Assembly (NCBI GenBank): GCA_009783775.1
Contig: WRCT01000001.1
Coordinates: forward strand, 1-48,567
Length of the DNA: 48,567 nucleotides
DNA from: Clostridiales bacterium
GTDB lineage: Bacteria > Bacillota > Clostridia > Christensenellales > CAG-138
Reading direction: 5' to 3'
Part shown: positions 2,340 to 47,010 of the stretch, in pieces
How the letters are laid out: each line of letters opens with the position of its first letter
Position numbering within the stretch: the first letter of the stretch is position 1
Made by a program: the position numbers and the translations under genes
Notes under the pieces: model-generated
What the model saw: the letters and a program-made list of their open reading frames with translations, nothing else
Told to the model about the DNA's origin: nothing
Databases searched by the model: none

Positions 2340-3311
2340 TTACGAATTGTCCTGCCGTCTTTTTTCGAATAGCAGCACCGCCGCGGCCACGCCCGCGTTG
2401 AGCGAGCCGATGTGCCCTTCCATGGGAATGGACACGAGAAAGTCGCAGTTGTCCTTAACCAGCTTGGAGAGCCCCGCGCCCTCGCCGCCGATGACCAGCG
2501 CCAACGGCCCGTTTAGGCCCTGCTCGTACATGGGTCGGCCCGCCATATCCGCGCCCGCGATCCACAGGCCCGCGCGTTTGAGTTCGATGATCGCGGCGGA
2601 GACGTTCACGACCCGCGCGACCTTGACGTGTTCCGTCGCGCCCGCGCTGGCTTTGACGGCGGCGGCGGTGACCTGTGCGCTCCGGCGTTTGCCGATGACC
2701 ACCCCGTGCACCCCCGCGCAGTCCGCGCTGCGGATAATCGAGCCCAGGTTGTGCGGGTCCTCGATTCCGTCCAGTACCACCACAAAAGGCGCCTGCCCCC
2801 GCTCTTTGGCGACGGCCAAAATGTCCGCCACATCGCAATAGGACACGCCGGCGGCGTAGGCTACGATGCCCTGGTGGTTGGCGGGCTTGCCGCCGTGGCC
2901 GAAGGGCAGGGTCAGCTCGTCTAATTTGCGCCGGTCGACCTCGCGGATTACCAGCTTGCTGTCACGCGCCAGGGAGACGATCTCACGCAGGGAGCCGTCC
3001 GGATCGGTCTGGACCAGAATCCGGTCAATGCTGCGGCCCGCGCGCACCGCCTCGCGCACCGCGTTGCGCCCGATGATCAGGAAGGGCAGCTCGTCCGCCC
3101 GCGTCTCGGGCGGCGGGGTCGGTTCGGGCGGCGGCACGGCCTCCCTCTTTGGTTTGCCGTAGCCTTCCCGCTTGCCATAGGTCTCGCGCGGACCGGCGGA
3201 TTCCCGTCGCTGCTCGTATTTTCCCCGCTGCGACTGCGGCTTGTTCTCTTTCCCCTTGTATGGGGGCTTGCTCTCTTTCCCCTTGTATGGGGGCTTTTTG
3301 CTGTATGCCAT
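2340..3311 (-). CDS. rlmB: 23S rRNA 2-prime-O-methyltransferase RlmB (SpoU/TrmH family)
   Basis: SpoU motifs: LDGIEDPHNLGSIIRSA, LVIGGEGAGLS and IPMEGHIGSLNAGVAAAVLLFE. N-terminal K/P-rich extension with a duplicated KPPYKGKE unit. AGGAG RBS. Confidence 0.85.
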   Translation of the reverse strand: MAYSKKPPYKGKESKPPYKGKENKPQSQRGKYEQRRESAGPRETYGKREGYGKPKREAVPPPEPTPPPETRADELPFLIIGRNAVREAVRAGRSIDRILVQTDPDGSLREIVSLARDSKLVIREVDRRKLDELTLPFGHGGKPANHQGIVAYAAGVSYCDVADILAVAKERGQAPFVVVLDGIEDPHNLGSIIRSADCAGVHGVVIGKRRSAQVTAAAVKASAGATEHVKVARVVNVSAAIIELKRAGLWIAGADMAGRPMYEQGLNGPLALVIGGEGAGLSKLVKDNCDFLVSIPMEGHIGSLNAGVAAAVLLFEKRRQDNS

Positions 3312-3331: not shown

Positions 3332-3426
3332 CGTCATTGCGGGTCTTACCGTCATTGCGGGTTTGACCCGCAATCTCCCGTGTTTTTGCGAAGAACGAGA
3401 TTGCGGCTCGGCGGCCGCAATGACGG
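3332..3426. repeat. REP/BIME-like cluster (CGTCATTGCGG hairpin family)
   Basis: Half unit at 3332-3344. Unit CGTCATTGCGGGT-ttg-ACCCGCAATCTC at 3350-3377. Inverted unit GAGATTGCGG-ctcggcgg-CCGCAATGACGG at 3397-3426. Lies between rlmB and mrnC. Confidence 0.85.
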
Positions 3427-11909: not shown

Positions 11910-12108
11910 CGTCATTGCGGACTTGATCCGCAATCTCAGTTAGTATTGGGATTGCGGGTCAAGCCCGCAATGGGAATCGCTGATTAACGCAATTCCCGCG
12001 TAGGGGCGGCTATTAGCCGCCCGCGAAACCGCCTGTTTACGCACGTTATGCGGGCGATTGATAATCGCCCCTACGCGAACGGGTACTTAATCAGCGATTC
12101 CAATGACG
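11910..12108. repeat. 199-bp nested composite palindrome built from REP-like and GTAGGGGCG units
   Basis: Outer pair CGTCATTG / CAATGACG. 15-bp inverted repeat GGAATCGCTGATTAA (11973-11987) / TTAATCAGCGATTCC (12087-12101). REP units at 11910-11937 and 11948-11974. GTAGGGGCG units at 12000-12022 and 12052-12074. Confidence 0.85.
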
Positions 12109-12430: not shown

Positions 12431-12458
12431 GAGATTGCGGATCAAGTCCGCAATGACG
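12431..12458. repeat. REP-like hairpin unit
   Basis: GAGATTGCGGA-tcaag-TCCGCAATGACG, between two minus-strand genes. Confidence 0.85.
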
Positions 12459-15400: not shown

Positions 15401-15733
15401 GATGGTGGTGCTTTGAATGGTTACGACGGACAGATTTGCGCAGCCATTAAACGCCCGATCTCCAATGGTTGTCACAGTGCCGGGAATCGTCACGCCGGTC
15501 AATTCGGGTTTGCCGGAAAACACGTCGTTCCCAATGGCGGTCACAGGGCTGCCGCCGAGTGTAGCGGGTATCGTTACCTGCGCCGCGGTGCCGGTGTATT
15601 TTGTGATGGTAGCCGCGCCGGAGTTTACGACATACTCAAAGTCTCCGCTTGTCGCGGCCAGGGCCAGAGCGGGCAGGATCGCCAAACACATGACAATCGC
15701 CAAAGCCAATGCTAAAATTCGTTTCATTTTCAA
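12467..15733 (-). CDS. large secreted surface protein: BspA-type LRR + dockerin-like module + nine SH3b-like repeats
   Basis: Signal peptide ending ALALA. LRR_5-like N-terminus. DVNCDGRVTAADAALILRWLV is a calcium-loop motif. P/T-rich linkers. Nine repeats with the pattern G.INA..(V/L)N.R.GP ... W(Y)KV ... GYV. Confidence 0.8.
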   Translation of the reverse strand: MKMKRILALALAIVMCLAILPALALAATSGDFEYVVNSGAATITKYTGTAAQVTIPATLGGSPVTAIGNDVFSGKPELTGVTIPGTVTTIGDRAFNGCANLSVVTIQSTTIRFDEYAFYYCENLYAIYFEGRPPTLGFLALTGTSPDLTLYFLSSQAAHWPVGGATWNGIKTASYTGTPSTPGPTSVPTASPTPSPTLTASPVPTASPTPSPSPSPTPTPTPFPTVRPDGSPSLLGDVNCDGRVTAADAALILRWLVQLSDLGGLPLVNAKVTRGTAPVSAADAAAILRFLVDIDTLPPATPDPNATPRPTATPTPTGMTPSPTPTATPTPTPASTPEPVFSAYGFINATDVNFREGPGTNYTSMAKLAKNTQVGIYESRKTGVWNYVIVLSTGKQGWVSDPYVTRTGAATPTPIPAVTATPTPAPTATPAPPAEPTGADGMTAWGTINASILNLREGPGTQHKIIKPLTKGTVVYLFVRYNNWYYVQVKTTGERGWISDSPSYVTMGTDRLTYYGTIRSDILIAAPLMPTASATGTELVLIPAGTKVGILAQSGDWYKVRLLSSAATVGYVQKIFFDAASLVAVDADVSPYLPGATPPPVPGATLVPGATPAPGVQTAPDFTTALGSVNAATVYLRSAPLVVGTSPTAATHNILSTLTRNQALFVFEKVTEGSTIWYRVQTQTTPPVIGYCLASGVTLTNTRLAAFGEINPAPAPLRATAAHSATLLATLNTRYELVGILSQSGDWYKVRLYSNGLEGFILKEYINLLYNVDTAPSAPAQAVVPVPEGVRAQAVTTSSSSNLYTTASTTSALIVKMGRDIPLYVLEMNTPAGWHKVQGMSGAYAGLTGFVQNSVISLTNTPVVLFATTASTVTVRSGAGQNFPALLHNGAALSLAAGTQVGVLSTTGGYCKIRVLSLGWEGFVPADALTGLGAPAPTGKPWPEGLTTTATIPASYVNLRPGPSTQGAALASLERRTELDVHEKIGDWYRVTVTSGADKGQTGYVFHNLITLAGDRIVAYGAVQTNFAVLRATASAGSASLCLLTVGQNVGIIAETGDWYKVRVLETSQIGYVPKSALTGIYTDDKPQ

Positions 15734-15831
15734 AAGTCTCCTAAATTATTTTCAGGTCACTTGGAAAGTATGTATGTTCACAGTATTATGTAATTGTATA
15801 TTTTAATACAAAAGATGGTTGATTGTCAATA

Positions 15832-15860
15832 TTGTCAACAGGATTTGCTTGTGGTAAACT
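15832..15860 (+). promoter_or_regulatory. promoter giving a near-leaderless mRNA
   Basis: TTGTCA, 17-nt spacer, TAAACT. The ATG at 15870 is 9 nt after the -10. No SD. Confidence 0.45.
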
Positions 15861-15869
15861 GTTTTTAAT

Positions 15870-17180
15870 ATGTCGAAACAAGTCAATAAAAGAAAAAGAA
15901 TCAAGGGAAAGCGACTGCCCGCGAAACCGCTGCGCCCGCTTTTGGAGAGCATACTGGTCTTTTGGCGCGGTAAGCTGAGGACAAAATACGGTCTGACGGT
16001 GGACCGCGAGGCCCTGCGCGGCGTGAAACCGCCCTTTATTGTGGTGTTCAACCATGTGGGCGATGACGACCAGTTTGTCGCGGGCACCGCGCTGCACCCC
16101 GTTATGCCCAACTACATGATGTCCAACTGGGCGGAGCACAGCTTTCCGCTGGCGCCGCTGTCGAAAGTGGCCGGCGCGATCCACAAGATCCGTTTCGTGC
16201 CGGACGTGCGCGCGGTCATGGCGGCCAAGCGCGTGCTCAAGGAACGCGGCGGCGTGGTCGGCGTCGCGCCCGCAGCCAGCTATTCCATCGACGGCACGCC
16301 CAGCTATTTCGACTACGGCATCGCAAAGTTCTGCAAGATGTTCAAGGTGCCCGTGTTCGCCCTGCGCATGGACGGGCTGTATTTCTTCCACAACCGCTTT
16401 TCGGGGCGGCAGCTCTGCAGGCTGCACGGCGCGGTGACCCGCGTGTTTGACGGGCCGGAACTTAAGGACATGGCGACCGAAGAGGTTTACAAACGCCTGT
16501 ACGAGGCCTGCGATTTCAACGACTTTCAATACCAGCGCCGCGTGATGGCGCCCGTGATCGCCAAAGACGACAACCTGGCCGAGGGCATGGAGTATGTGGC
16601 CTATCGCTGCCTGCGCTGCGGGGCCGAGTTCCAAACCGAGGGCAAGGGCAATGTTTTAACTTGCTCAGCCTGCGGCAACGCCCTGCGCGTGAACCGATAT
16701 TATTTCTTCGAGCCCCATTCCTCGCCCTGCGCCTGGGTGGAGGAGCTGAACCAATGGACGCAGTTCCAGCGGCAGCTGGTGGCCGAAGAGATCGAAAAAG
16801 AGGATTTTCATATCAGCTGCGACTGCGCGCTCTATCGGTTTACCGAGGGCAAGAAATACGGCGTGACGCGTTACGGGCGGGGCAGACTGCGCCTGGACGC
16901 CTCGGGCTTTACCTATACCGGCACGGACAAGGACGCGGGCGTAACCTATCATCACCCTCTGGCGGACACCTATTATGTGGGCAACGACACCCGCGTGTAT
17001 CTGAGCGTGGACACGCCCAAGCGCAGCTATCAGTACCGGCTGGACAATATGAAGATGGGCGCGAAATACCTGCTGGCCCTAACCGCGCTGCGGGAGAAAT
17101 ACCATCCCTACTTCCCCGACGAGGCGGAGTGGCGGCGGGGGCTGGTTACGAATACCGAATTTACAATTCATAATTCATAA
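15870..17180 (+). CDS. PlsC/LPLAT-family acyltransferase-like protein with C-terminal zinc-ribbon region
   Basis: Motif FNHVGDDD (HX4D block). GVAPAASYSIDG block. CLRCG..CSACG pair. The stop TAA lies in the heptads ATAATTC ATAATTT. Confidence 0.6.
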   Translation: MSKQVNKRKRIKGKRLPAKPLRPLLESILVFWRGKLRTKYGLTVDREALRGVKPPFIVVFNHVGDDDQFVAGTALHPVMPNYMMSNWAEHSFPLAPLSKVAGAIHKIRFVPDVRAVMAAKRVLKERGGVVGVAPAASYSIDGTPSYFDYGIAKFCKMFKVPVFALRMDGLYFFHNRFSGRQLCRLHGAVTRVFDGPELKDMATEEVYKRLYEACDFNDFQYQRRVMAPVIAKDDNLAEGMEYVAYRCLRCGAEFQTEGKGNVLTCSACGNALRVNRYYFFEPHSSPCAWVEELNQWTQFQRQLVAEEIEKEDFHISCDCALYRFTEGKKYGVTRYGRGRLRLDASGFTYTGTDKDAGVTYHHPLADTYYVGNDTRVYLSVDTPKRSYQYRLDNMKMGAKYLLALTALREKYHPYFPDEAEWRRGLVTNTEFTIHNS

Positions 17181-22812: not shown

Positions 22813-22947
22813 AACCGCGAAACACGCAAGCGGTAGCGGTATCCGTCATTGCGGGCCCCGACCCGCAATCTCTCTGCTTTATTTGCTCAGAGATTGCGGA
22901 TCAAGTCCGCAATGACATAAAAAGAGGCTTTCGTGTTTTTCGCGGTT
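22813..22947. repeat. composite BIME-like element: outer ~19-21-nt imperfect inverted repeat enclosing two inverted REP units
   Basis: AACCGCGAAACACGCAAGC / GCTTTCGTGTTTTTCGCGGTT enclose CGTCATTGCGGG..CCCGCAATCTC (22844-22872) and GAGATTGCGGA..TCCGCAATGACA (22890-22917). Confidence 0.85.
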
Positions 22948-30860: not shown

Positions 30861-32600
30861 TCATATGCTCTCGGGAACTTCCCGCTCAATCTCTGCGGTC
30901 AACTCTGCAATCAGTTCGCGCACGCGAGAAAGGGCGTCGGCGATGGCTACGTCCTCTTTGACGCGCTTGTCGCGGGTGACGAGCTCGAAAGCGCCGCGCG
31001 CTAAAGTTTTGGGGCTGACAACGAGCCGGATCGGCACGCCCAACAGGTCCGCGTCCGAGAACATAAAGCCGGGCGACACGGCGCGGTCGTCGAACAGAAC
31101 CTCTATGCCCTGCGCCTGCAAAGCGATATACAGCGCGTCGGCCTCGCGGCGGACATTCTCGTCGTCCACGCGCAGGGCGCAGATATGCACCTGCCAGGGC
31201 GCGATGGAAATGGGCCAGATCGGGCCGTAATCGTCGTGTTTCGCCTCGCAGACCGAGGCCATCAACCGTCCCACGCCGATCCCGTAGCAGCCCATGATGG
31301 GGTGGACACGGTTGCCCAGCGCGTCGTCGAAGGTCATGTCCATGGATTCGGTGTATTTTGTGCCCAGCTGGAAGATATTGCCCACCTCAATGCCGTGCGA
31401 AATGCGCAGGGCCGGCTCGCCGCAATTGGGGCAGGGGCCGCCGGAAAAGGCTTGTCCGACATTGACGTAGGGGACGGCGCCCCCGACGTCCCGCGAAGGG
31501 GTAAAGCCTGTGTAGTGATACCCTTCTTTGTTCGCTCCGCAAACCAAATTCGTGGCTCCCATAAGGGATTGGTCATAGATGACGTCGGCCTTGGCGTTCA
31601 GGTTGACCGGTCCGCAGCAGCCCGCCACCAGCCCGCAGCTCTCCAGCTCCTGCGCGGGATGGATTTCTGCTTTCAAGTAGTTGCGCAGCTTGGTCTCGCT
31701 GATGTCGATATCGCCCCGGCAGAAGACCACGACAAAGCTGTCGTCCGCGTTGCGCTGATAGACCACGGCCTTGCAGGACTTGGCGGGGTCCGTGCCCAAA
31801 AAGCCGCAGACCTCCTCGATGGTTTTGTTCTCGCCGGTATCGACCAAGGTGAGGGGGTCGAGGACTTCATCCGTTTCATTGCTTGTGATGCACTCCGCCG
31901 CCTCGATATTGGCGCGGTAGCCGCAGGCGTCGCAGAGTACAAGCGTGTCCTCGCCGATGTCGGCCAGCAGCATGAACTCGTGGCTGATCTTGCCGCCCAT
32001 CATGCCCGAGTCGGACTGCACCGAGATGACCTCCGGCACGCCCGCGCGGGCAAAGATACGCTCATAGGCGCGGTAGCAGCGTTCGTAGTAGGCCTCCAGA
32101 TCCTCCTGGCTCGTGTGGAAGGAGTAGCCGTCCTTCATGGTGAACTCGCGCACGCGGATCAGGCCGCCCCGGGCGCGCGGCTCGTCACGGAATTTGGTTT
32201 GGATCTGATAGATCATGAAGGGATATTTCTGATACGTGCCCGCGACGTGCATGGCCAGGTGCACCGCCGGTTCCTCGTGCGTCATGCCCAGGACCATGGG
32301 CGAGCCGGAGCGGTCCGAAAAGCGCACGAGCTCGCTGCCGACGCTGGTATAACGCCCCGACAGCTCCCACAGCGAGGCGGGGATCGCGACGGGGAAGAGC
32401 ACTTCCTGCCCGCCGAGCGCGTCCATTTCCTCGCGCAGGATCGCCTCGATCTTGTTTACGATACGTTTGGCGGGCGGGAACAGGGAATAAATGCCGTTGC
32501 CGACCTGTTTGATGTAGCCGCCGCGCGTCATCAGGTTTTGGCTCGCAATATCAAAGGCGCGCTCCTTAAACCGCTCGCCCAGCAATTGACTCATTTTCAT
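30861..32600 (-). CDS. proS: proline--tRNA ligase (bacterial type with INS editing domain)
   Basis: 579 aa. The FRDEPRARGGLIRVREF motif (class II aminoacyl-tRNA synthetase), an INS editing-domain insertion, and a C-terminal anticodon-binding domain. Confidence 0.95.
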   Translation of the reverse strand: MKMSQLLGERFKERAFDIASQNLMTRGGYIKQVGNGIYSLFPPAKRIVNKIEAILREEMDALGGQEVLFPVAIPASLWELSGRYTSVGSELVRFSDRSGSPMVLGMTHEEPAVHLAMHVAGTYQKYPFMIYQIQTKFRDEPRARGGLIRVREFTMKDGYSFHTSQEDLEAYYERCYRAYERIFARAGVPEVISVQSDSGMMGGKISHEFMLLADIGEDTLVLCDACGYRANIEAAECITSNETDEVLDPLTLVDTGENKTIEEVCGFLGTDPAKSCKAVVYQRNADDSFVVVFCRGDIDISETKLRNYLKAEIHPAQELESCGLVAGCCGPVNLNAKADVIYDQSLMGATNLVCGANKEGYHYTGFTPSRDVGGAVPYVNVGQAFSGGPCPNCGEPALRISHGIEVGNIFQLGTKYTESMDMTFDDALGNRVHPIMGCYGIGVGRLMASVCEAKHDDYGPIWPISIAPWQVHICALRVDDENVRREADALYIALQAQGIEVLFDDRAVSPGFMFSDADLLGVPIRLVVSPKTLARGAFELVTRDKRVKEDVAIADALSRVRELIAELTAEIEREVPESI

Positions 32601-32625
32601 GGGGATACGCTCCTGTGAATTCTTT

Positions 32626-33330
32626 TTAACGGTATTTCAGCCTGCGGAACCAGTTGAGGGACAGGTGTTTGAGTTGGGTTCTGCTGCCGCCAAAGTATTG
32701 CCGGTTCAAATCGCGGGACAAGAGCCCCACCCAAACGATGGTCGCCATGATCAAAAAGATCGCGGCAAGCGCCTTGCCCAGCAGCACGGCGGCAAATACA
32801 TATCTGCCGTCAATGATTGTGAACGTGAAGTAAGGCCCTTCGTTGATGATGGCGCCCAGGAAAATATAAATCGCCAAACCCCAGGAACCGTAGATGAAAT
32901 ACCGCCGTTCCTTTAATCTCTCCGACACTGTCAAGAAAAGGAACACGGAGAGGGCAATGCTGACACCAACATAGATGACGGCCAGCACCTTATAGCCACC
33001 CAGGTTGGACAGAATCATATAGGCGCTGTACAGGGAAAGCCCCCAAAAGGGCATGGCGCCGAAATAGGGCCAGATCTGCGAAAGATAGGCGCAGGCGATA
33101 AAGCCCAGGCACAACATCAGCTCGGGACTGATCAGCTGATGGAAGAACAGCGTAAAGAACTGCGAAAGACCGGCGGCGCTGAAAAACGGGGCGAGGGAGA
33201 AACTGCCCGTCAGACAGTTCAGGCGAAGGCCCAAAAGCGCGCAGGCGGCGCCCACGGCGGCCAAAACAATCGCTCTCTTCAAGGTGAAGGATTTGAGCGG
33301 TATCCTCAGTTTTACTTCCTGAACTTCCAT
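32626..33330 (-). CDS. hypothetical polytopic membrane protein
   Basis: Start taken at ATG 33330 (AGGAGG upstream). About 6 TM. Lower GC than its neighbours in hand counts (47 and 55 percent in two 60-nt lines). No family recognised. Confidence 0.5.
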   Translation of the reverse strand: MEVQEVKLRIPLKSFTLKRAIVLAAVGAACALLGLRLNCLTGSFSLAPFFSAAGLSQFFTLFFHQLISPELMLCLGFIACAYLSQIWPYFGAMPFWGLSLYSAYMILSNLGGYKVLAVIYVGVSIALSVFLFLTVSERLKERRYFIYGSWGLAIYIFLGAIINEGPYFTFTIIDGRYVFAAVLLGKALAAIFLIMATIVWVGLLSRDLNRQYFGGSRTQLKHLSLNWFRRLKYR

Positions 33331-33423
33331 AGCGCCTCCTGTTCCGATAACAATATGATTCTCTAGTATATGGGATAATCCTTTTCCTGTCAACCGCAAG
33401 AAAATAAAACAGAATGTTATAAA

Positions 33424-35886
33424 TTACTCCAAAATGCGGCACGCCTGGGTCACCTCGTCGTCCAGCACGACGGGCACGAGCATGGTCCCTTTTCCCGCGC
33501 GCGCTTCGATGTGGATTTGCTCCGTGCCCAGCGTCGTCTGCGTGCCGTGGCGCTGGCTGATTTGGATCGAAAATGGCGTGGTGACGACGGCGGCGTAGAC
33601 CAGCCGCGTGCCGTTTAAGCCGTTTTTCTTAAAGTCAAAGGCCTTGAGCCCCTTGCCGTTGCGCCCCTGCAGCTCAAAATCAAAGAGGAAGGAGCGCTTG
33701 CCGAACCCACGGTCGGTCAAGCAAAGCAGTTCGCCCTCGTCCCCCGCCTGCGCCGCGAACAGGACCTTGTCGCCCGCGTCCAGTTTCATACCGTGCACGC
33801 CCGCCGCCGTTCTGCCGGTCGCCGGTACGGTCGCCGCGTCGAAACGAATGCCCATGCCCTTTTGCGTAAGCAGCAAAATAGGCGCGTCTGAGGCCGGAAT
33901 CATGGCGATCAGCTCGTCCTTGTCCTTGAGGGTCAGGGCGGCCGTGCGTTTGGCGCGCACGGAAAACTCCGCGGCGGCCGTGCGTTTGACCATGCCGTTC
34001 GCGGTGAATTGCAGATATTCTTCCGCTTTGCCCCCCTCTCCGAGGGAGGAAGGCAGCGAAGCTGACAGGGGGGCGCTTTCAGCAAATACCGCAACAACAC
34101 GCTCGTTCTTTTGGAACTCCACCAGCGACATCAGATTGGCGGCGCGGGCCGTGCTGCGTGTTTCGGGAATGTCGGAGACCTTCAGGCTCAGCATTTCGCC
34201 CAGATTCGTCACCAACCGCAGCTGGGCGTCGCTTTTGACGTGTAAGAGCTGCCAAGGCCCGTCCGCGCGCACCTGCGAGAGGTTCCACAGCCGCTCGGGG
34301 CAGCGGCGGACTTTATTGTCCGCACAGAGCGCGACGACCACGTCCTCCGCGAGCTCCCCTTCCTCGCGCGGCGTTTCGATATCTTTGTCTCCCGCCACCA
34401 GTTGCGTGCGGCGGGGCGTGGGGAACATCTCGCGAATCTCTAAAAGCTCGCGCCGGATGAGATTGAACAGCTTGCGTTCCGAGGCCAGAATCGCGGTCAG
34501 GTCGGCGATGCGTTTGACGACCTCGGCATACTCGCGCTCGATGGAGAGCAACTCTAAATTGGTCAGCCGCTGCAGGCGCAGATCGAGAATGGCCTGGGCC
34601 TGGATCTCGGACAGTTCAAACGTCTGACAGAGCCGCGCGCGCGCCTCCTTGGGCGAACGGCTGGCGCGGATCAAACGAATCACCTGGTCCACATGGTCGA
34701 CCGCGACCATAAGGCCCTCTAAAATATGCTCACGCCGCCGCGCGGTCTCCAGCTCGTATTGCGTGCGGCGCGTGACGACCTCGCGCTGGAAGGCGATGTA
34801 GGTCTTGAGGATTTGTTTGAGCGACAGCTGCTGCGGCCGCCCGCCCGCGATGGCGACATAGTTCGCGCCGAAGGTGCATTGCAGGTCGGAATACTTGAAC
34901 AGGTATTGCAGGATCTTCTCCGGATCGCCGTCCTTTTTCACCTCGATCACCGCGCGCATACCGTTGCGGTCGGACTCGTCCCGAATGTCCGCCACACCCG
35001 CGAAGAAGGCCTTTTTCTCCTGCGTGACGGCCAGAATATTTTCGAGCAGCCGCGCCTTGTTGACCTGATAGGGCAGCTCGGTGATCACGATCCGCGTCTT
35101 GCCGTTTTTCATCTCCTCGAAATGCGTGCGCGCGCGCATGGTCAGCTTGCCGCGGCCCGTCTCGTAGGACTTTTGGATCTCCTCCGACGCCAGCAGATAG
35201 CCGCCCGTGGGAAAGTCCGGCGCGGGCAAAATGGCCATGAGCTCGGAAAGTTTGATCTTCGGGTTTTCGATCATGGCGATGACCGCGTCGATCGCCTCGG
35301 TGGGATTGTGCGGCGGGATATTCGTCGCCAGGCCCACGGCAATGCCGCTCGCGCCGTTGACCAGCAGGTTGGGGAACCGCCCGGGCAGCACTTCGGGCTC
35401 CTTGAGCGTATCGTCAAAATTCCAGCCGAAGGGCACGGTGTCCTTGTCCAGATCGCGCAGCAGCAGCATGGCGGCAGGCGTCATGCGTGCCTCGGTATAA
35501 CGCATGGCGGCGGCGGTATCGCCGTCCATCGAGCCGAAGTTGCCGTGGCCGTCCACAAGCGGCAGGCTCATATTAAAGGGCTGCGCCATACGCACCATCG
35601 CGTCGTACACGGACGAATCGCCGTGCGGGTGATACTTGCCCAAACAGTCGCCCACAATGCGCGCGCTCTTGCGGTGGGGCTTGTCGGGCGTCAAGCCCAG
35701 CTCCAGCATGGAGAAGAGAATGCGCCGCTGCACGGGCTTTAACCCGTCCTCGACCCGCGGCAGCGCCCTTTCCAAAATAACATACTCCGCATAGGGCATG
35801 ACGGAGTTGTGCATCACCTCGTCCAAGCTCTTGAAGATGATGTTTTCGGTTAATGGCGTGTGATAGTTATTTGTGTTTCTCGGCAT
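33424..35886 (-). CDS. parC: type IIA topoisomerase subunit A (ParC-like; GyrA family)
   Basis: [14 protein letters not shown] ... [22 protein letters not shown] ... [10 protein letters not shown]. The PVQRR and GDSS signatures resemble ParC/GrlA more than GyrA. No GyrA box was seen at the start of the C-terminal domain. Confidence 0.8.
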
Positions 35887-35911
35887 GGTTTACTCCAAAC
35901 TACATTGTTAT

Positions 35912-35938
35912 CGTCATTGCGGACTTGATCCGCAATCT
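35912..35938. repeat. REP-like hairpin unit
   Basis: CGTCATTGCGGA-cttga-TCCGCAATCT, between the inserted ORF and parC. Confidence 0.85.
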
Positions 35939-37496
35939 AATATAATCTCTCGTTTCGTCGTTTCGCTCTGTATATGATGAAGAGCCACAACACGCAAAAG
36001 ATAAGGGCGAAACCCAGGCCGCCGCTGTAACAAATTTTAATAATGAAAGGATCTAAAAGTATATCCAAATAAGGCTCACCCGCAAGGACACTGCCAAGGG
36101 CAGACATCGCGACCCAAAATACAGTTGCCCACACAAGTCCCATAGCAAGAAATGTCAACGCAAGTTTCCAGGCGTTCTTCCACGCGTTGCTTTTGAGACC
36201 GTATTGCGCCTTGTACTCCTTTGTCAACTGCTGTCCCGACAAAAGGCGATAGGCTTGCGCCAAATGCGGTTCAACCCCGGCTTTTGCGGTTTCGGCGGCC
36301 TCGGCGTACGCCTCCTTCGAATCTTGGGGACAGATTTCATAGGCGGGGTTTTTCACGCCGCACACCATGATATAATTCGCTCTGTGTTTTCCGATATGCT
36401 GACAGTCATAGGCCGTTAGCTCTTGAAACGGTATGCCCTGCACGGATTGATCTATATCTATCTCAATGGTACCGACGATAAGCCAAGCGGCAAACCGATA
36501 AAAGGAATTCTCCGCAAAGCTCAGAAGCTGCCCCGTGTTTTTTTCTGTCATTCGCCTGAAATGGGGATAGTCTCCCGAAAACCCATCTATGCGCAAGCGT
36601 TCCGTTACAAAGCTGCGAAAGTCGGAAATCAAGGCATCGATTTTCTCGCTGTCTGCCGGTTTGCGTGAATATTCACTGCACGCCTGCTCGAATTGGGAAA
36701 GCAGCCAATGCAAAACATATCTTCCTTCAAAGGTGGTGAGTTCCAACCTCGCGCGCCGCAAAGCGGAAAGGGTTTTCCGTGCATTGCCGTTTGTTTTATT
36801 GTCTTGATATCTGGATAGAGCGGAAAAGAACTTGTGTAGGAATTTGTCCCTGCCTTCTGTTTTCAGCCTTTGCGCCCATTCGTCAAGCTGTTCGGGGGAG
36901 ACCGCCATCTTTTCCGCATAACTCTTTACGGATATAATGGATTTATAAGAATATGCATTGTGAAGTTGACTGAGGCTTTGCGCGGCGGGGAAAAGCTGTT
37001 GTTCCTTTCCGTTTAGCGCGGCTGCCCCCATCATCTGCTGTTTTTCCATAAGCACCGCCGCCAACCAACTGACCGCTTGTAAGTTGGCTCTGTCCGCCGG
37101 AAATCGGTTGATGACACAATGGGTATAGTAATCGAACGGCGTGAATTGATAATCAACGCCGCGAAAGCGGACTTCCTGCTGTATGGTTGCCCGATCCTCT
37201 CCCTGTTCCCAACGGAGAAAGGATAGCTTGAATCCTTCCGGCAAGAGAGATAGCGCCGCGTCGCCAAGCCAATCCTCTTGCTCTCCCTCTATCGCCGGCT
37301 CACATTGTATGCCCAGTAGATTTAACTTGAGTTGTCCCCAAGTAAAATCACAAATAAGGGACGCCTCACCACTTTTGGGAAAAATGATTTTTGCTTCTGC
37401 GGCAAACAGAGGCCAATGCGCCCTTACCTCCGCAGGAAAGCGTTCAATCGCCCTTTGCTCGTCCTCTTGATGGGTTGACAGTATCGGGCTGCTCAT
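35937..37496 (-). CDS. hypothetical protein: ~430-aa soluble domain + three C-terminal TM helices, inserted between the topoisomerase subunit genes
   Basis: 519-aa ORF. Its ATG overlaps the parE TGA (ATGA). Hand-counted GC is about 40-57 percent per 60-nt line, against 67 percent in one neighbouring line. No family recognised. Confidence 0.7.
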   Translation of the reverse strand: MSSPILSTHQEDEQRAIERFPAEVRAHWPLFAAEAKIIFPKSGEASLICDFTWGQLKLNLLGIQCEPAIEGEQEDWLGDAALSLLPEGFKLSFLRWEQGEDRATIQQEVRFRGVDYQFTPFDYYTHCVINRFPADRANLQAVSWLAAVLMEKQQMMGAAALNGKEQQLFPAAQSLSQLHNAYSYKSIISVKSYAEKMAVSPEQLDEWAQRLKTEGRDKFLHKFFSALSRYQDNKTNGNARKTLSALRRARLELTTFEGRYVLHWLLSQFEQACSEYSRKPADSEKIDALISDFRSFVTERLRIDGFSGDYPHFRRMTEKNTGQLLSFAENSFYRFAAWLIVGTIEIDIDQSVQGIPFQELTAYDCQHIGKHRANYIMVCGVKNPAYEICPQDSKEAYAEAAETAKAGVEPHLAQAYRLLSGQQLTKEYKAQYGLKSNAWKNAWKLALTFLAMGLVWATVFWVAMSALGSVLAGEPYLDILLDPFIIKICYSGGLGFALIFCVLWLFIIYRAKRRNERLY

Positions 37497-39460
37497 CGAC
37501 TCATTTCCCCGTTTATGTCATCAAAAACCGTGTTCTCACGATTAAAGTTCGCGTATTCAAAGATGTACTCCTTGCGCGACTGGACCTTATCGCCCATTAA
37601 AACGGTCACGAGATATTCCACGTCCGCCGCGTCCTCGATGGTCACGCGGATCAGGCGCCGGTTTTCGGGGCTCATGGTCGTGTCCCAGAGCTGCTGCGGG
37701 CTCATCTCGCCCAGGCCCTTGAACCGCTGCAAATGGTAGTTCTTGCTCGCGCCGCGCATGGCCTTGGCCAGCGTTTTGTCGTCATAGCAATAGACGGGCT
37801 CGGCGCCGGATTTCGTGAACTTATACAGCGGCGCCATGCCGATATAGACATGACCTTCCGTGATGAGCGGCCGCATATAGCGGTAGAAGAAGGTAAGCAA
37901 AATCGCGCGGATATGCGCGCCGTCCTGGTCCGCGTCGGAGAGAATGATGATCTTGTCGTACTTGAGCGATCGGCTGTCAAAGTCCTCGCCGATGCCCGTG
38001 CCGACCGCCGTGATGATGGAACGGAACTCCTCGTTTTGCAGGACCTGCTCCAACCGCTTTTTCTCCACATTGAGCGGCTTGCCCCGCAGTGGCAGAATGG
38101 CCTGAAACCGCCGGTCGCGGCCCTGTTTCGCGCTGCCGCCCGCGCTGTCGCCCTCGACCAGGAACAGCTCGTTGACCGAGGCGTCCCGACCCGTGCAGCT
38201 GGAGAGCTTTCCCACCAGCGGCGCGTTTTCGAGCTTGTTTTTCTCGCGCGCCGTCTCGCGCGCCTTGCGTGCCGCCGCGCGTACCTTGGCGGCCTTGACC
38301 GCCTTTTCCGCGATCTTGTTGGCGATGTCCGCGTGGCGCAGGTCCTCCCAATAGGGGATGAGGGTCTGCTGTATCACCGCCTCCACAGCGGGGCGGGCCT
38401 CGGTGTTGCCCAGCTTGGTCTTGGTCTGACCCTCGAACTGCACATTGCGCATTTTGAGCGAGAGAATAGCGGTCATGCCCTCGCGGAAGTCCTCGCCCGC
38501 CAGCGACGCGTCCTTGTCTTTGAGTGCGCCCGCCTTGCGGCAGTAGTCGTTCATCACCTTGGTAAAGGCAGCCTTAAAGCCCGTCTCATGCGTGCCGCCC
38601 TCGGAGGTGGGCACGTTGTTCACATAGGAGAAAAGGTTGTCCGTATAGCTGTCGTTGTGCTGGAATGCGACCTCGACCTGTATGTCGCCGCTCGCGCCTT
38701 TCAGATAAATCGGCGGGTCGTAGAGGGCTGTGTTTTCGCCGCCCAAAAAGCGGACAAAGTCAGAGAGCCCGCCCTCGAAACGGTACTCGACGCGCTTGCC
38801 GTTCCCCCGCGCGCGGTTGTCTTCCAGCACCATTTTTACACCACGGTTGAGATAGGCCAGCTCGCGCAGGCGGCGGGAGATGGTGTCAAAATGCATTTCC
38901 AGCGTCTCGAACACGCGATCGTCGGGCAGGAAGGTCACGACCGTGCCCTGCTTGCGGCAGCGGCCCAGTTCGGTCAGCGGGCCCTTGGGCTGGCCCGCGT
39001 GGATCTTGCCGTCCGCGTCCTCCACGCTTTCAAATTCCTGGCGATAGGTGCGGTTTTCGTGATAGACCTCGACCGAGAGCCGGCGCGAGAGCGCGTTGAC
39101 CACGGACGCGCCGACGCCATGCAGGCCGCCCGAGTAGCCATAGGCCTCGTTGCCGAACTTGCCGCCCGCGTGCAGCTGGGTGAACACGACCTCCACGCCC
39201 GACACGCCGAGTTTTTCGTGAATGCCGACGGGAATGCCGCGCCCGTTGTCGGTGACCGTGACGGAGTTGTCGCGGTTTAAGGTGACGAGAATCTCATTCG
39301 CATAGCCGTTGGCGGCCTCGTCGATCGCGTTGTCGACGATCTCCCAAAGCAAATGGTGCAGGCCGCGCGGCCCGACCGAGCCAATGTACATACCGGGCCT
39401 GCGGCGAACGGCCTCAAGGCCCTCCATGACGGTGATATCTTTGACAGTGTAGTTGGACAT
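37493..39460 (-). CDS. parE: type IIA topoisomerase subunit B (ParE-like; GyrB family)
   Basis: GLEAVRRRPGMYIGS ... LHHLLWEIVDNAIDE ... GGLHGVGASVVNALS ... LVEGDSAGGSAKQGRDR ... PLRGK. 655 aa. Confidence 0.8.
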   Translation of the reverse strand: MSNYTVKDITVMEGLEAVRRRPGMYIGSVGPRGLHHLLWEIVDNAIDEAANGYANEILVTLNRDNSVTVTDNGRGIPVGIHEKLGVSGVEVVFTQLHAGGKFGNEAYGYSGGLHGVGASVVNALSRRLSVEVYHENRTYRQEFESVEDADGKIHAGQPKGPLTELGRCRKQGTVVTFLPDDRVFETLEMHFDTISRRLRELAYLNRGVKMVLEDNRARGNGKRVEYRFEGGLSDFVRFLGGENTALYDPPIYLKGASGDIQVEVAFQHNDSYTDNLFSYVNNVPTSEGGTHETGFKAAFTKVMNDYCRKAGALKDKDASLAGEDFREGMTAILSLKMRNVQFEGQTKTKLGNTEARPAVEAVIQQTLIPYWEDLRHADIANKIAEKAVKAAKVRAAARKARETAREKNKLENAPLVGKLSSCTGRDASVNELFLVEGDSAGGSAKQGRDRRFQAILPLRGKPLNVEKKRLEQVLQNEEFRSIITAVGTGIGEDFDSRSLKYDKIIILSDADQDGAHIRAILLTFFYRYMRPLITEGHVYIGMAPLYKFTKSGAEPVYCYDDKTLAKAMRGASKNYHLQRFKGLGEMSPQQLWDTTMSPENRRLIRVTIEDAADVEYLVTVLMGDKVQSRKEYIFEYANFNRENTVFDDINGEMSR

Positions 39461-39484
39461 TCTTTTTCTCCGAAGTTTTCAGCT

Positions 39485-39540
39485 GTAGGGCGGGGGCGGG
39501 CGTTCGCCGTTTGCCGCGTAGGGGCGAACTGTGTTCGCCC
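39485..39540. repeat. two GTAGGG(G)CG-family hairpins in direct orientation
   Basis: GTAGGGCGGGGGCG..CGCC and GTAGGGGCGAAC-tgtg-TTCGCCC, in the parE 5-prime region. Confidence 0.8.
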
Positions 39541-39732
39541 GCTTATTCCGGATAGATTATACCACAAGATGTAGTGTTTGCGTCCCTGCGTTGAGCCAGA
39601 TTTACTAATTGTTTACAAGGGGGGAAGACTGTCCTGAGCCGGACAGGGAATGAAGCGCAAAGATTTCAATATTTTAATCAGCAGTTAGTATGCACCTACT
39701 ACTTGAGCACATGCGGTTGTTGTTGCTTGACA

Positions 39733-39760
39733 ACAAAAGACCCGCGTGGCGCGGGTCTTC
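39733..39760 (-). terminator. intrinsic terminator after lysC
   Basis: Minus strand: AAGACCCGCG-cca-CGCGGGTCTT followed by TTTGTTGT. Confidence 0.75.
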
Positions 39761-39822
39761 AAAATCAAAACGCTTAAATTCTACAGCTCTTCCAGCTCCA
39801 CCAGCGCGCGCCGAATCCCTGG

Positions 39823-41136
39823 TTACGCGAAGGCCTTATAAATCGCCCGAATGGCGGTTTCAAAGTCCTTATCCTCTACGCCCACGATGATGTTCATCTC
39901 GGACGAGCCCTGGTCGATCACGCGGATGTTCACGTCGGCCCCATACAGCGCGGAAAACAGTCGGGCCGCGACGCCCTTGCTGCGGACCATGCCTTTGCCC
40001 ACTGTGGCGATCAGGGCCACGCCGGTCGAGATCTCGATCGGGCGGCGCACGTCGCACTCGCGCCGGATCTGATCTAAGACGGTTTCTAACTTGCCCTCCA
40101 GCTGGGCGTTGTGCACCACGAGCGACATGGTGTCAATGCCCGAGGGCACGTGCTCGAAGGTGATGTTGTTGCGCGCGATCACGCGCAGCAGGCGGTAGCC
40201 GAACCCGATCTCGTTGTGCATATTGTCCTTCGTGACGGTCAGGATCGTGAACCCTTTGCGTCCGGCGACACCGGTCAGCGGCCGCGTGTTCGTTTTGTCC
40301 GCTCTGGCGTCCGGCACGATCATGGTGCCGGCGACCTCGGGCTCGTTTGTGTTGCGCACCTGAATGGGGATCTTCGCTTTGCGCACGGGGAAGATCGCGT
40401 CCTCGTGCAGCACGGTCGCGCCCATGTAGCTCAGCTCGCGCAGCTCGGAATAGGTGACGGTGTCGATCACGCGCGGATTCTCCACAATGCGCGGGTCGGC
40501 CATCAAAAAACCCGACACGTCCGTCCAGTTCTCATACACGTCCGCGCGCACGGCCCGCGCGATGATCGCGCCCGTGATGTCGCTGCCGCCGCGGGAGAAG
40601 GTGCGGATCGAACCGTCGCGCTTGCGGCCATAAAAACCGGGCACCACGACGCCGCTGCGCCCCTCGAGCACGCTCGACCAAAGCTGCGTGGTCTCGTCGT
40701 CATAGGTGCCGTCGTCGTGGAAACAAATCAGCTCGTTCGCGTCCATGAAGGTCCAGCCCAAGAAGGCCGCGAGCAGAATGCCGTTCAGATACTCGCCCCG
40801 ACTGGCGGCGTAGTCCGCGCTGGCGTTGTTTTCAATGGCGCGGGCGATGGCGGTCAATTCCCGATCCATGCCGCAGCTGAGGCCCAAATCAGACTCGATC
40901 TCCAGATACCGCTCGCGGATCAAGTCAAAGGTCGGGCCAAAGTCCTCACCCGCCTGCCGTTTGCTTTGGCAGAGATACAACAGGTCGGTAATCTTCTCGT
41001 CGGCCGAAAACCGCTTGCCGGGCGCGCTGGGCACCACAAATTGGCGGCTCTTGTCCGCCTCGAGAATGGCCTTTACTTTATGAAATTGGTTGGCGTCGGC
41101 CAGTGAGCTTCCGCCGAATTTGGTCATGCGTAACAT
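39823..41136 (-). CDS. lysC: aspartate kinase
   Basis: TKFGGSSLAD ... VVPSAPGK ... FSRGGSDITGA, plus C-terminal ACT repeats. GGAG RBS. Confidence 0.9.
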   Translation of the reverse strand: MLRMTKFGGSSLADANQFHKVKAILEADKSRQFVVPSAPGKRFSADEKITDLLYLCQSKRQAGEDFGPTFDLIRERYLEIESDLGLSCGMDRELTAIARAIENNASADYAASRGEYLNGILLAAFLGWTFMDANELICFHDDGTYDDETTQLWSSVLEGRSGVVVPGFYGRKRDGSIRTFSRGGSDITGAIIARAVRADVYENWTDVSGFLMADPRIVENPRVIDTVTYSELRELSYMGATVLHEDAIFPVRKAKIPIQVRNTNEPEVAGTMIVPDARADKTNTRPLTGVAGRKGFTILTVTKDNMHNEIGFGYRLLRVIARNNITFEHVPSGIDTMSLVVHNAQLEGKLETVLDQIRRECDVRRPIEISTGVALIATVGKGMVRSKGVAARLFSALYGADVNIRVIDQGSSEMNIIVGVEDKDFETAIRAIYKAFA

Positions 41137-45866: not shown

Positions 45867-46054
45867 GTTGGCTTTGCGGCATTTTCTTGTCTCGCACCCA
45901 GGCCGTACACTGGGCGCGGGACGGCCAGAAAATACCGAGAGGTGTGGACTGCGACCGCGCCCGGGCCCCGACACAGCAATCCAGTATACGGTCTGGGATG
46001 CTGGGTTGGGTGGTCTGTCGCTCTTGTCCACGGATTATTTTGGGTTTTGGTATC

Positions 46055-46103
46055 GTAGGGCGGGGGCTTGCTCTCGCCGCGTAGGGGCGATTATCAATCG
46101 CCC
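46055..46103. repeat. two GTAGGG(G)CG-family hairpins in direct orientation
   Basis: GTAGGGCGGGGGC..CGCC and GTAGGGGCGAT-tatca-ATCGCCC. The second stem is identical to those at 17250-17272 and 12052-12074. Confidence 0.85.
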
Positions 46104-46110
46104 GCCAATA

Positions 46111-46326
46111 TCAAATCTTTTCCGCGCTGTTTTTATCCAGAAAGATAACGTCAAACTCACAAATCTTCGCGAGCCGCTCTACCACATCATAATTGGGCAT
46201 ACTGTAGCCCGTTTCATATCCGCTTAAGGTAGTTTGCGCGATCCCCAGCCTTGCAGCGAGTTCGGCCTGACTGAAACCGGCAGCGATCCGCATTTGTTTT
46301 ATCCGTTTTCCAAGCAAAGCAATCAC
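46111..46326 (-). CDS. XRE-family helix-turn-helix regulator
   Basis: 71 aa. LGKRIKQMRIAAGFSQAELAARLGIAQTTLSGYETG. The GTG start overlaps the upstream stop (GTGA). Confidence 0.7.
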   Translation of the reverse strand: MIALLGKRIKQMRIAAGFSQAELAARLGIAQTTLSGYETGYSMPNYDVVERLAKICEFDVIFLDKNSAEKI

Positions 46327-46565
46327 TTCACTTCCTGCTCCAGAGCGTCAAACGCGGGGGTATTAAAAAACTCGCCCAGCGTGATCCCAAACCCGTCGCA
46401 GAGTTTTTTGATCGTAGCAACGCCCGGGTTTTTACTTCTTTTGTAAAATATCCCCTTTATCGTGGAATTGGAAACGCCCGCAATATAACTTAACCCATTG
46501 ATGGTAATGCCGCGCTCCTTGCACAACGCCTCAATTCTATTTGCCACAGCCTGCCTTGTATCCAT
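46323..46565 (-). CDS. XRE-family helix-turn-helix regulator
   Basis: Start at ATG 46565 (GAGGTG 5 nt upstream). ANRIEALCKERGITINGLSYIAGVSNSTIKGI. Confidence 0.7.
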   Translation of the reverse strand: MDTRQAVANRIEALCKERGITINGLSYIAGVSNSTIKGIFYKRSKNPGVATIKKLCDGFGITLGEFFNTPAFDALEQEVK

Positions 46566-46590
46566 GTCCGCACCTCTTTTCTTCAACAGC

Positions 46591-46671
46591 TTGCTATATA
46601 TCGCAAATTATTGTTTGGTATATGTGGCAAAAAGCAAAAAGATGTGATACAATGTTTGCAATATATGGCAA
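46591..46671. promoter_or_regulatory. divergent control region with three 16-bp operator-like palindromes
   Basis: TTGCTATATATCGCAA (46591-46606). TTGGTATATGTGGCAA (46615-46630). TTGCAATATATGGCAA (46656-46671). An extended -10, TGaTACAAT (46645-46653), lies between O2 and O3. Confidence 0.6.
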
Positions 46672-46684
46672 ATGGGAGGCAGAT

Positions 46685-46849
46685 ATGGCGGACTATAAAG
46701 AAATGTATTATGAACTTTTCGTAGAGGTAGCGAACGTAATCGAACGTTTGCAGAAAGTACAGCAGAAAACGGAGATGATGTACGCAACTGCGGACGGTGG
46801 AGACCTGGTTTTTGGTCCGAATGTTGACGAACAGGAGGGTGACGAGTAA
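46685..46849 (+). CDS. hypothetical small acidic protein (54 aa)
   Basis: ATG with GGGAGG 5 nt upstream. Divergent from the XRE pair. No family recognised. Confidence 0.35.
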   Translation: MADYKEMYYELFVEVANVIERLQKVQQKTEMMYATADGGDLVFGPNVDEQEGDE

Positions 46850-46980
46850 GCGGATACCAAAAACCCATCATTCAAAAGGCGCGCCCGTCCGGCATGCCTT
46901 CCTTTCTATTGCCCCCGGCGCCCGGATAGACGCCGGACACTGGTTTTTTTATCCTGTTTTGTAAACAATACGGGTTTTTC

Positions 46981-47010
46981 TTGTCAGTTCTGTGGGAGAT
47001 GTGCTAAAAT
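46981..47010 (+). promoter_or_regulatory. sigma-A type promoter for the amylase gene
   Basis: TTGTCA, 18-nt spacer, TGcTAAAAT (extended -10). Confidence 0.55.

Follow-up and report, generated by a model that had tools for sequence, protein, structure and literature searches.

The window analysed here is a stretch of 48,567 nucleotides (nt), positions 1 to 48,567 of contig WRCT01000001.1 (assembly GCA_009783775.1), from a Clostridiales bacterium of the CAG-138 lineage. It carries on its minus strand an open reading frame (ORF) of 519 amino acids (aa), which is sandwiched by the genes for the B and A subunits of a type IIA topoisomerase. The original prediction, made from the letters of the DNA, had put such an ORF exactly between the two subunit genes, and this was borne out. 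As shown in Table 1 and below, the ORF is by its sequence a new member of DUF3878, a family that is catalogued but uncharacterised, and is found here in a new genomic setting.

The B subunit matched the NCBIfam model PRK05644 with 871 bits but stayed below the gyrB and parE equivalog cut-offs alike, and the A subunit matched PRK05561 with 783 bits, exceeding the cut-off of 654. These generic models were the only ones passed by the flanking pair, the gyr and par equivalog cut-offs being both missed. A GyrA-box motif was sought in the A subunit and not found. By sequence the pair could be either gyrase or topoisomerase IV: the scores lie under both equivalog sets, and the B subunit is named 'DNA gyrase subunit B' at NCBI although a GyrA box is missing from its partner. 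We call the pair topoisomerase IV-like and its genes parE and parC.

Table 1. Features of the parE-DUF3878-parC locus, with the REP-like copies of the window and the lexA-linked family loci
Feature	Position	Strand	Evidence
Type IIA topoisomerase B-subunit gene (ParE/GyrB-like, 655 aa), upstream operon partner	37493..39460	-	Pfam HATPase_c, DNA_gyraseB, Toprim, DNA_gyraseB_C
Shine-Dalgarno (SD)-like GGGGA, 9 nt 5' of the insert ATG, within the parE tail	37506..37510	-	Sequence; sister has GGAGA at equal spacing
ATGA stop/start overlap of parE and the DUF3878 gene	37493..37496	-	Sequence; identical junction in sister contigs L005, L006
DUF3878-family gene, 519 aa, without the family N-terminal region; GC at third codon positions (GC3) 0.54	35937..37496	-	Sequence, Pfam, relatives
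Pfam DUF3878 match, aa 146-332; helical core with K152/G157/L161/E165 motif and GFxGxYPHFRR motif	36501..37061	-	Pfam, alignment, model
First membrane helix of the predicted C-terminal hairpin, about aa 441-470	36087..36176	-	Hydropathy, charge distribution, AlphaFold2 helix 438-472
Second predicted membrane helix, about aa 485-510, then basic tail RAKRRNERLY	35967..36044	-	Hydropathy, AlphaFold2 model
REP-like palindrome right after the TAG stop; no U-tract, not an intrinsic terminator	35916..35936		Repeat count, fold, terminator scan
GGAGTAA left over from the end of ancestral parE (...K-E-stop), doubling as parC ribosome-binding site	35890..35896	-	Junction comparison with L007, L009 (no insert) and L011
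Type IIA topoisomerase A-subunit gene (ParC/GyrA-like, 820 aa), no GyrA box	33424..35886	-	Pfam DNA_topoisoIV, DNA_gyraseA_C
REP-like copies (window positions)	3354-3374, 11914-11934, 11951-11971, 12434-12454, 22893-22913, 35916-35936		
lexA + DUF3878-family gene (other genomes)	L014 5148-7700; L015 1792-4341; L016 4330-7000; L026 4366-6926	same strand	Locus reading

The insert is joined to parE at a junction reading 'cgATGAgc', in which its ATG (37496-37494) overlaps the parE TGA (37495-37493). A coupling of the two genes through this overlap had been proposed; both the ATGA and the SD-like motif upstream of it were seen, and both are conserved in the sister lineage described below. The GC content of the ORF, which had been judged low from a few hand-counted lines, was computed as 0.496 against 0.589 for the window (z-score -3.2), and its GC3 as 0.542 against 0.825 for parE, 0.812 for parC and 0.819 for proS, making it an outlier. 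Further low-GC stretches of the window lie at 15501-16000 (0.47) and 46001-47000 (0.46-0.49). The suggestion of a foreign origin was thereby strengthened, the evidence for it being the outlying GC3, the absence of the insert from relatives with about 79% ParE identity, and a relic of the parE end beside parC.

A survey of related parE-parC loci, which the original prediction had called for, found the insert absent from the relatives L007-L010 (ParE about 79% identical), where only 3 nt separate the B gene from the A gene, and present in a sister lineage, the closest relative, whose ParE is 88% identical. The sister lineage is represented by three contigs, L005 and L006 on the parE side and L011 on the downstream side. 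Both its ATGA junction and the shortened N-terminus of its DUF3878 protein agree with those of the window. L005 and L006 are independent contigs, each breaking off 29 nt beyond the parE stop; these 29 nt of the sister insert encode MNDPLLSIREE, against MSSPILSTHQE in the window. The JGI and ENA sister assemblies stop at the identical base (L005 at its end, 6859; L006 at its end, 5802), and this shared break may reflect strain heterogeneity or a sharp shift in composition. The third contig, L011, comes from the same metagenome and carries a DUF3878 gene 61% identical to that of the window, then an extra cargo gene, then parC, the first 150 or so residues of which are 93% identical to the window ParC. 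The extra cargo gene (1528-2922, GC3 0.59) encodes Schlafen-AlbA_2, HATPase_c_4 and winged-helix domains and gave a strong match to a phage 'DNA helicase' family in PHROGs and partial matches in PADLOC. A (CACTTTC)x4 tandem repeat lies in L011 at 2960-3000, just 5' of parC.

Comparison of the junctions located a scar of the insertion. In the insert-free genomes parE ends '...AAG GAG TAA gcc ATG', and the GGAGTAA is also the ribosome-binding site of parC. The same GGAGTAA is found beside parC, 3' of the cargo, in the window ('TTTGGAGTAAACCATG') and in the sister lineage ('CTAGGAGTAACCATG'). After the conserved '...VF', ParE ends in DDINGEMSR-stop in the window and DTISGDANR-stop in the sister, against the ancestral EKIKE-stop, a gain of four residues, and the final NGEMSR of the window ParE has no ancestral counterpart. 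Judged from these junctions, the insertion point is just ahead of the two codons that ended the ancestral parE. Since the junction and the shortened N-terminus are common to both lineages, the insertion happened once, in their common ancestor, and by the same comparison it is timed between the nodes at 79% and 88% ParE identity. It had also been supposed that the insertion rebuilt the ParE C-terminus and left its end AT-rich. A limited rebuilding stands, namely DDINGEMSR in place of EKIKE. The last 64 nt of parE are indeed low in GC (0.41), but relatives without the insert are likewise low (0.39 and 0.48); because they show it too, the AT-rich tail is ancestral and no mark of the insertion. 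Repeats bracketing or flanking the insert and mobility genes between parE and parC were sought, and none were found.

Between the insert and parC lies the hairpin that had been described as a repetitive extragenic palindrome (REP), which was confirmed as a repeated palindrome, ATTGCGGA-CTTGA-TCCGCAAT. The label REP-like is fair because the window holds six copies against 0.00 expected and all of them are intergenic. The copies have a conserved 28-nt core (CGTCATTGCGGACTTGATCCGCAATCTC) and unrelated flanks, and some are adjoined by partial extra copies. The predicted fold has a 9-bp core stem, with a minimum free energy of -16.7 kcal/mol for the 81-nt region. The terminator scan did not list the palindrome after the DUF3878 gene, and since it lacks a U-tract it is not an intrinsic terminator. 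The element is missing from the equivalent site in L011, so this copy arrived later.

We compared the window and sister copies of the insert for nonsynonymous (dN) and synonymous (dS) divergence. The DUF3878 gene had a dN of 0.26 and a dS of 1.04 (ratio about 0.25), with no internal stops in either copy, and parE a dN of 0.08 and a dS of 0.62 (ratio about 0.13). Family-invariant residues (K152, E165, P311 and the G305/G308 motif) are kept in both copies. By this codon comparison, the DUF3878 protein is shown to be maintained under purifying selection. A search for a sigma-70-like promoter on the minus strand from the parE start to parC found none, and an Rfam scan of 32000-40500 found nothing. 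Because no promoter was found there, we infer expression of the insert from the parE promoter, with obligatory read-through to parC, and hence its co-expression with the topoisomerase operon. On the other side of parC, a membrane ORF (32626-33399, minus strand, GC3 0.69), already pointed out in the original prediction, lies before proS and had no match in Pfam, NCBIfam, PADLOC or PHROGs. A near-consensus TTGACA-17-TATACT site at 33393..33365 fits an independent transcript of this membrane ORF that starts at the ATG at 33330.

The original prediction recognised no family for the insert product. The protein reaches the gathering threshold of Pfam DUF3878 (PF12994) with 27.1 bits against 27 (E 3.2e-6), and the NCBI name agrees: an identical protein from a Clostridiales metagenome-assembled genome (MAG) is called 'DUF3878 family protein' (MCL2694721.1). 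We trust the marginal score because relatives and profiles back it. PF12994 is matched by 17 of the 25 aligned relatives (best E 5.6e-22), and hhalign of the window subfamily against a distant subgroup (A3 versus A4) gave a probability of 99.9% and an E of 1.2e-33 over 519 columns. The family is small in sequence collections. Among 1.84 billion cluster representatives, a profile search with E up to 1e-3 turned up only 35 relatives, word-indexed protein searches with the single protein and with the 25-sequence profile returned three, and a reference-genome scan using the subfamily alignment returned none. No relatives of the protein were found in plasmid, phage and viral-contig collections; its best PADLOC match (E 0.035) was not significant and PHROGs gave no match. 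Pfam describes PF12994 as 'Domain of unknown function, E. rectale Gene description', and DUF3878 is mentioned by no paper in the literature library searched.

Like typical PF12994 members, the window protein has the family motifs K..LG..LN..E (K152, G157, L161, E165) and GFxGxYPHFRR (G305, G308, P311), the C-terminal hydrophobic helix pair that is common in the family and full-length profile-profile homology to members with strong matches to the model. It differs from them in its setting in a topoisomerase operon without a promoter of its own, and in the absence of about 120 N-terminal residues: most members have 610-650 aa, and only the core and the membrane hairpin of the typical architecture are present here. 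The N-terminal region is also missing from three relatives, P0147 (518 aa), P0136 and P0139. Two helix-turn-helix signals were rejected, a match to HTH_28 at aa 187-219 (E 0.016), found in only one of 25 members, and a similarity to the IS481 helix-turn-helix (E 0.067), which was taken as noise.

An AlphaFold2 model built from a 25-sequence alignment had a mean predicted local distance difference test score (pLDDT) of 89.7 and a predicted template modelling score (pTM) of 0.85; a first model from four sequences (pLDDT 57) was discarded as poor. The model consists of short N-terminal helices, a beta segment (36-121), a helical core (123-303), a beta-containing segment (307-388), a long helix, and then the long helices 438-472 and 483-516. 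Hydropathy and the model alike gave two hydrophobic segments instead of the three transmembrane helices proposed at first. Because four K/R residues lie in each outer flank and three D/E in the connecting loop, the segments are predicted to form a hairpin whose N- and C-terminal ends are both cytoplasmic (N-in/C-in). The soluble domain, first described as helix-rich and of about 430 aa, is mixed alpha/beta in the model: the product is predicted to be a cytoplasmic domain of about 437 aa on a two-helix C-terminal membrane hairpin. Foldseek found no match with an E below 0.1 in PDB or BFVD, and a sequence-profile search of PDB gave nothing meaningful. Weak sliding-clamp matches recurred in Foldseek and were set aside as noise (root-mean-square deviation 11.4 Å or more, TM-scores around 0.1). 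With a confident model and no structural match, the DUF3878 fold may be new. In the alignment no group of catalytic-type residues stands out as conserved, H312 and C365 varying across the family, which would favour a non-enzymatic role.

To place the insert among its relatives we read 16 further DUF3878-family loci, and in none of them is a topoisomerase gene adjacent. In the subfamily of the window protein the neighbours are mutually unrelated: a MarR gene with a fab cluster, napD/Fer4 with a formate/nitrite transporter, rlmH/htrA/yycI, YcxB/DUF2310, a glpA-like operon, and an uncharacterised 156-aa ORF. A separate deep clade has members that are 22-55% identical to one another and 20-24% identical to the window protein, and in four of its loci (L014, L015, L016 and L026) the family gene lies 18-155 nt 3' of lexA on the same strand. 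These loci come from Clostridia MAGs (Eubacteriales, Acutalibacteraceae, Oscillospiraceae and one further assembly). Each of the four lexA genes is preceded by a palindrome of the CAAACAAATGTTTG type, that is CAAAC-N4-GTTTG, a relaxed Gram-positive LexA box. The operator was absent 5' of family genes without a lexA link and 5' of parE in the window, the sister lineage and the insert-free relatives. Scans for the canonical Cheo box CGAAC-N4-GTTCG and for the relaxed RAAC-N4-GTTY revealed no operator close to the window gene; the relaxed motif occurs once in the whole window (29339, intragenic) against 1.7 expected, with no site in the insert, and the window has no lexA gene. SOS regulation of the window copy was rejected, since no LexA-type operator lies near the gene. 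Among the other loci, M23 peptidase genes lie 3' of the family gene in L018 and L026. In L024 (1-4211; 5001-6842) the DUF3878 gene is divergent from a GGDEF gene, after which come sbcD-sbcC, two and three genes away; by gene content the family thus has a second DNA-repair neighbourhood. Near the family gene in the rest lie a GNAT gene, ABC-2/P-type ATPase genes or uncharacterised genes.

We propose that a foreign DUF3878 gene without its N-terminal region would have been acquired horizontally in the common ancestor with the sister lineage, landing before the last two codons of parE. Having no promoter of its own, the insert would share the transcript of the topoisomerase operon, its translation would depend on termination-reinitiation at the ATGA overlap, and transcription to parC would have to cross both the insert and the non-terminating REP hairpin. 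Its position would reflect capture at a permissive operon junction and not a dedicated partnership with topoisomerase IV; we regard the parE/parC junction as permissive because a further, unrelated cargo gene occupies it in the sister lineage and because mitis-group streptococci have a parE-ant-parC arrangement. The whole of this account, DUF3878 identity, insertion history and captured cargo in place of a dedicated partner, seems to us rather probable.

Several points weigh against it. The Pfam DUF3878 score is barely at the cut-off. GC3 is near 0.54 in both lineages although the insertion is shared, old and beside genes with a GC3 of 0.83-0.84, and such low values without amelioration are unaccounted for by a simple old horizontal transfer. 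No hallmark of a mobile element accounts for how the insertion occurred. The lexA linkage lies in another clade, about 20-24% identical, while the neighbours of the window subfamily are scattered, and no LexA-type operator precedes parE or the family members unlinked to lexA. The tight ATGA coupling, kept over a dS of about 0.6-1.0, also fits a stoichiometric relation with ParE.

The last point would agree with a protein that is a dedicated partner of topoisomerase IV, a membrane tether or modulator of ParE/ParC acting, for example, in decatenation at the division site, with the coupling setting its stoichiometry with ParE. Conservation of the ATGA overlap and the SD-like motif in two lineages and the purifying selection on the gene would be expected of such a partner, the geometry of a membrane-anchored protein with a large cytoplasmic domain would suit it, and family members do lie near DNA-damage genes (lexA in four loci, sbcCD in L024). 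However, none of the 16 other family loci is beside a topoisomerase gene, ParE relatives at 79% identity function without the insert, the sister lineage placed an unrelated gene in the same junction, and Pfam searches found no recognisable interaction or DNA-binding domain. We consider a partnership of this kind unlikely. The roles first suggested for the protein, as a topoisomerase tether, modulator or protection against poisons, have thus lost ground through the 16 unlinked loci, the Schlafen/AlbA_2 gene at the sister junction and the lack of a pentapeptide-repeat or GyrI-like signal, and a topoisomerase-specific role is not supported by the sequence comparisons. The lexA operons of one clade hint at a looser link of the family to DNA transactions.

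The gene may instead be accessory or defence-island cargo, the parE-parC junction being a small variable island and the gene having a role outside DNA topology, for example in envelope stress or anti-phage defence. The sister cargo gene, with its Schlafen-AlbA_2, HATPase_c_4 and winged-helix domains, its phage match and its partial PADLOC matches, speaks for this, as do the low GC3 of both cargo genes (0.54 and 0.59) and the scattered family neighbourhoods. The DUF3878 protein itself, however, has no PADLOC or PHROG match and no relatives on plasmids, phages or viral contigs, and the search for mobility genes and flanking repeats was negative, which leaves a defence or island role doubtful. 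It is very unlikely that the insert is a mere passenger whose frame is kept open mainly to spare the essential parC from polar effects, the protein itself not being needed: no promoter-like signal for parC was seen in or after the insert and nonsense mutations could cause Rho-dependent polarity, but a dN/dS of about 0.25 reflects amino-acid constraint and not merely an open frame, and the family-invariant residues K152, E165, P311 and the G305/G308 motif are kept in both lineages. A protection factor against topoisomerase poisons (quinolones, toxins) like Qnr/MfpA or GyrI, for which the position between the genes of the target's subunits is the sole argument, is scarcely credible, as Pfam and NCBIfam at E up to 1 gave no pentapeptide-repeat, GyrI-like or other inhibitor-family signal, Foldseek gave no match to such proteins, the rest of the family is unlinked to topoisomerases, and the established protection factors are not known to be membrane anchored.

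Like the parE-ant-parC arrangement of mitis-group streptococci, in which an unrelated and horizontally spread gene lies between the topoisomerase IV subunit genes (PMC2727337), the window locus holds an unrelated gene that would have spread horizontally. They differ in that ant lies in an intergenic region of 4-6 kb, whereas here a single membrane-protein gene is joined to the parE stop by ATGA. With Qnr/MfpA and GyrI/SbmC the DUF3878 protein shares only the idea of acting on a type IIA topoisomerase; it has no sequence or fold similarity to them and is predicted to be membrane anchored. YneA of Bacillus subtilis and SosA of Staphylococcus aureus are SOS-linked membrane division inhibitors encoded beside lexA. 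The likeness is of membrane proteins tied to lexA, four DUF3878-family genes lying directly 3' of lexA with a LexA-type operator. Inhibitors of the YneA/SosA type are small proteins with one N-terminal helix and an extracellular domain, and their genes are transcribed divergently from lexA. The DUF3878 proteins, in contrast, have 520-650 aa, are predicted to be mostly cytoplasmic with a C-terminal hairpin, and in the window copy have neither a lexA neighbour nor an operator.

Returning to captured cargo as the preferred account, a function can be guessed at tentatively. From the apparent co-transcription of the deep clade with lexA and the M23 peptidase genes beside some members, the protein might possibly be a non-enzymatic membrane scaffold at the interface of chromosome status and cell envelope. 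The lexA operons suggest, by gene order and operator, a membrane-anchored family factor connected to the DNA-damage response; they are not evidence on the window copy. A broader idea, that DUF3878 proteins are a hitherto unrecognised class of membrane-anchored effectors of Clostridia linking DNA damage or decatenation status to envelope or division, SOS-induced with lexA in the deep clade and, in the shortened copy here, hard-wired to topoisomerase IV expression, is improbable in our estimate.

For the genome, the locus is a clean, datable case in which a foreign gene was captured within an essential operon and the scar of the old gene end survived, and the captured gene is now on the transcription path to parC. 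For annotation, the idea of a family-less ORF is corrected to DUF3878. SOS-linked membrane factors of Clostridia are, to our knowledge, poorly defined. The lexA-DUF3878 arrangement, which is new as far as we can tell, may represent an undescribed membrane protein of SOS operons, and DUF3878, a rare family with a well-predicted fold that is co-operonic with lexA in one clade of gut-type Clostridia, is a concrete SOS candidate.

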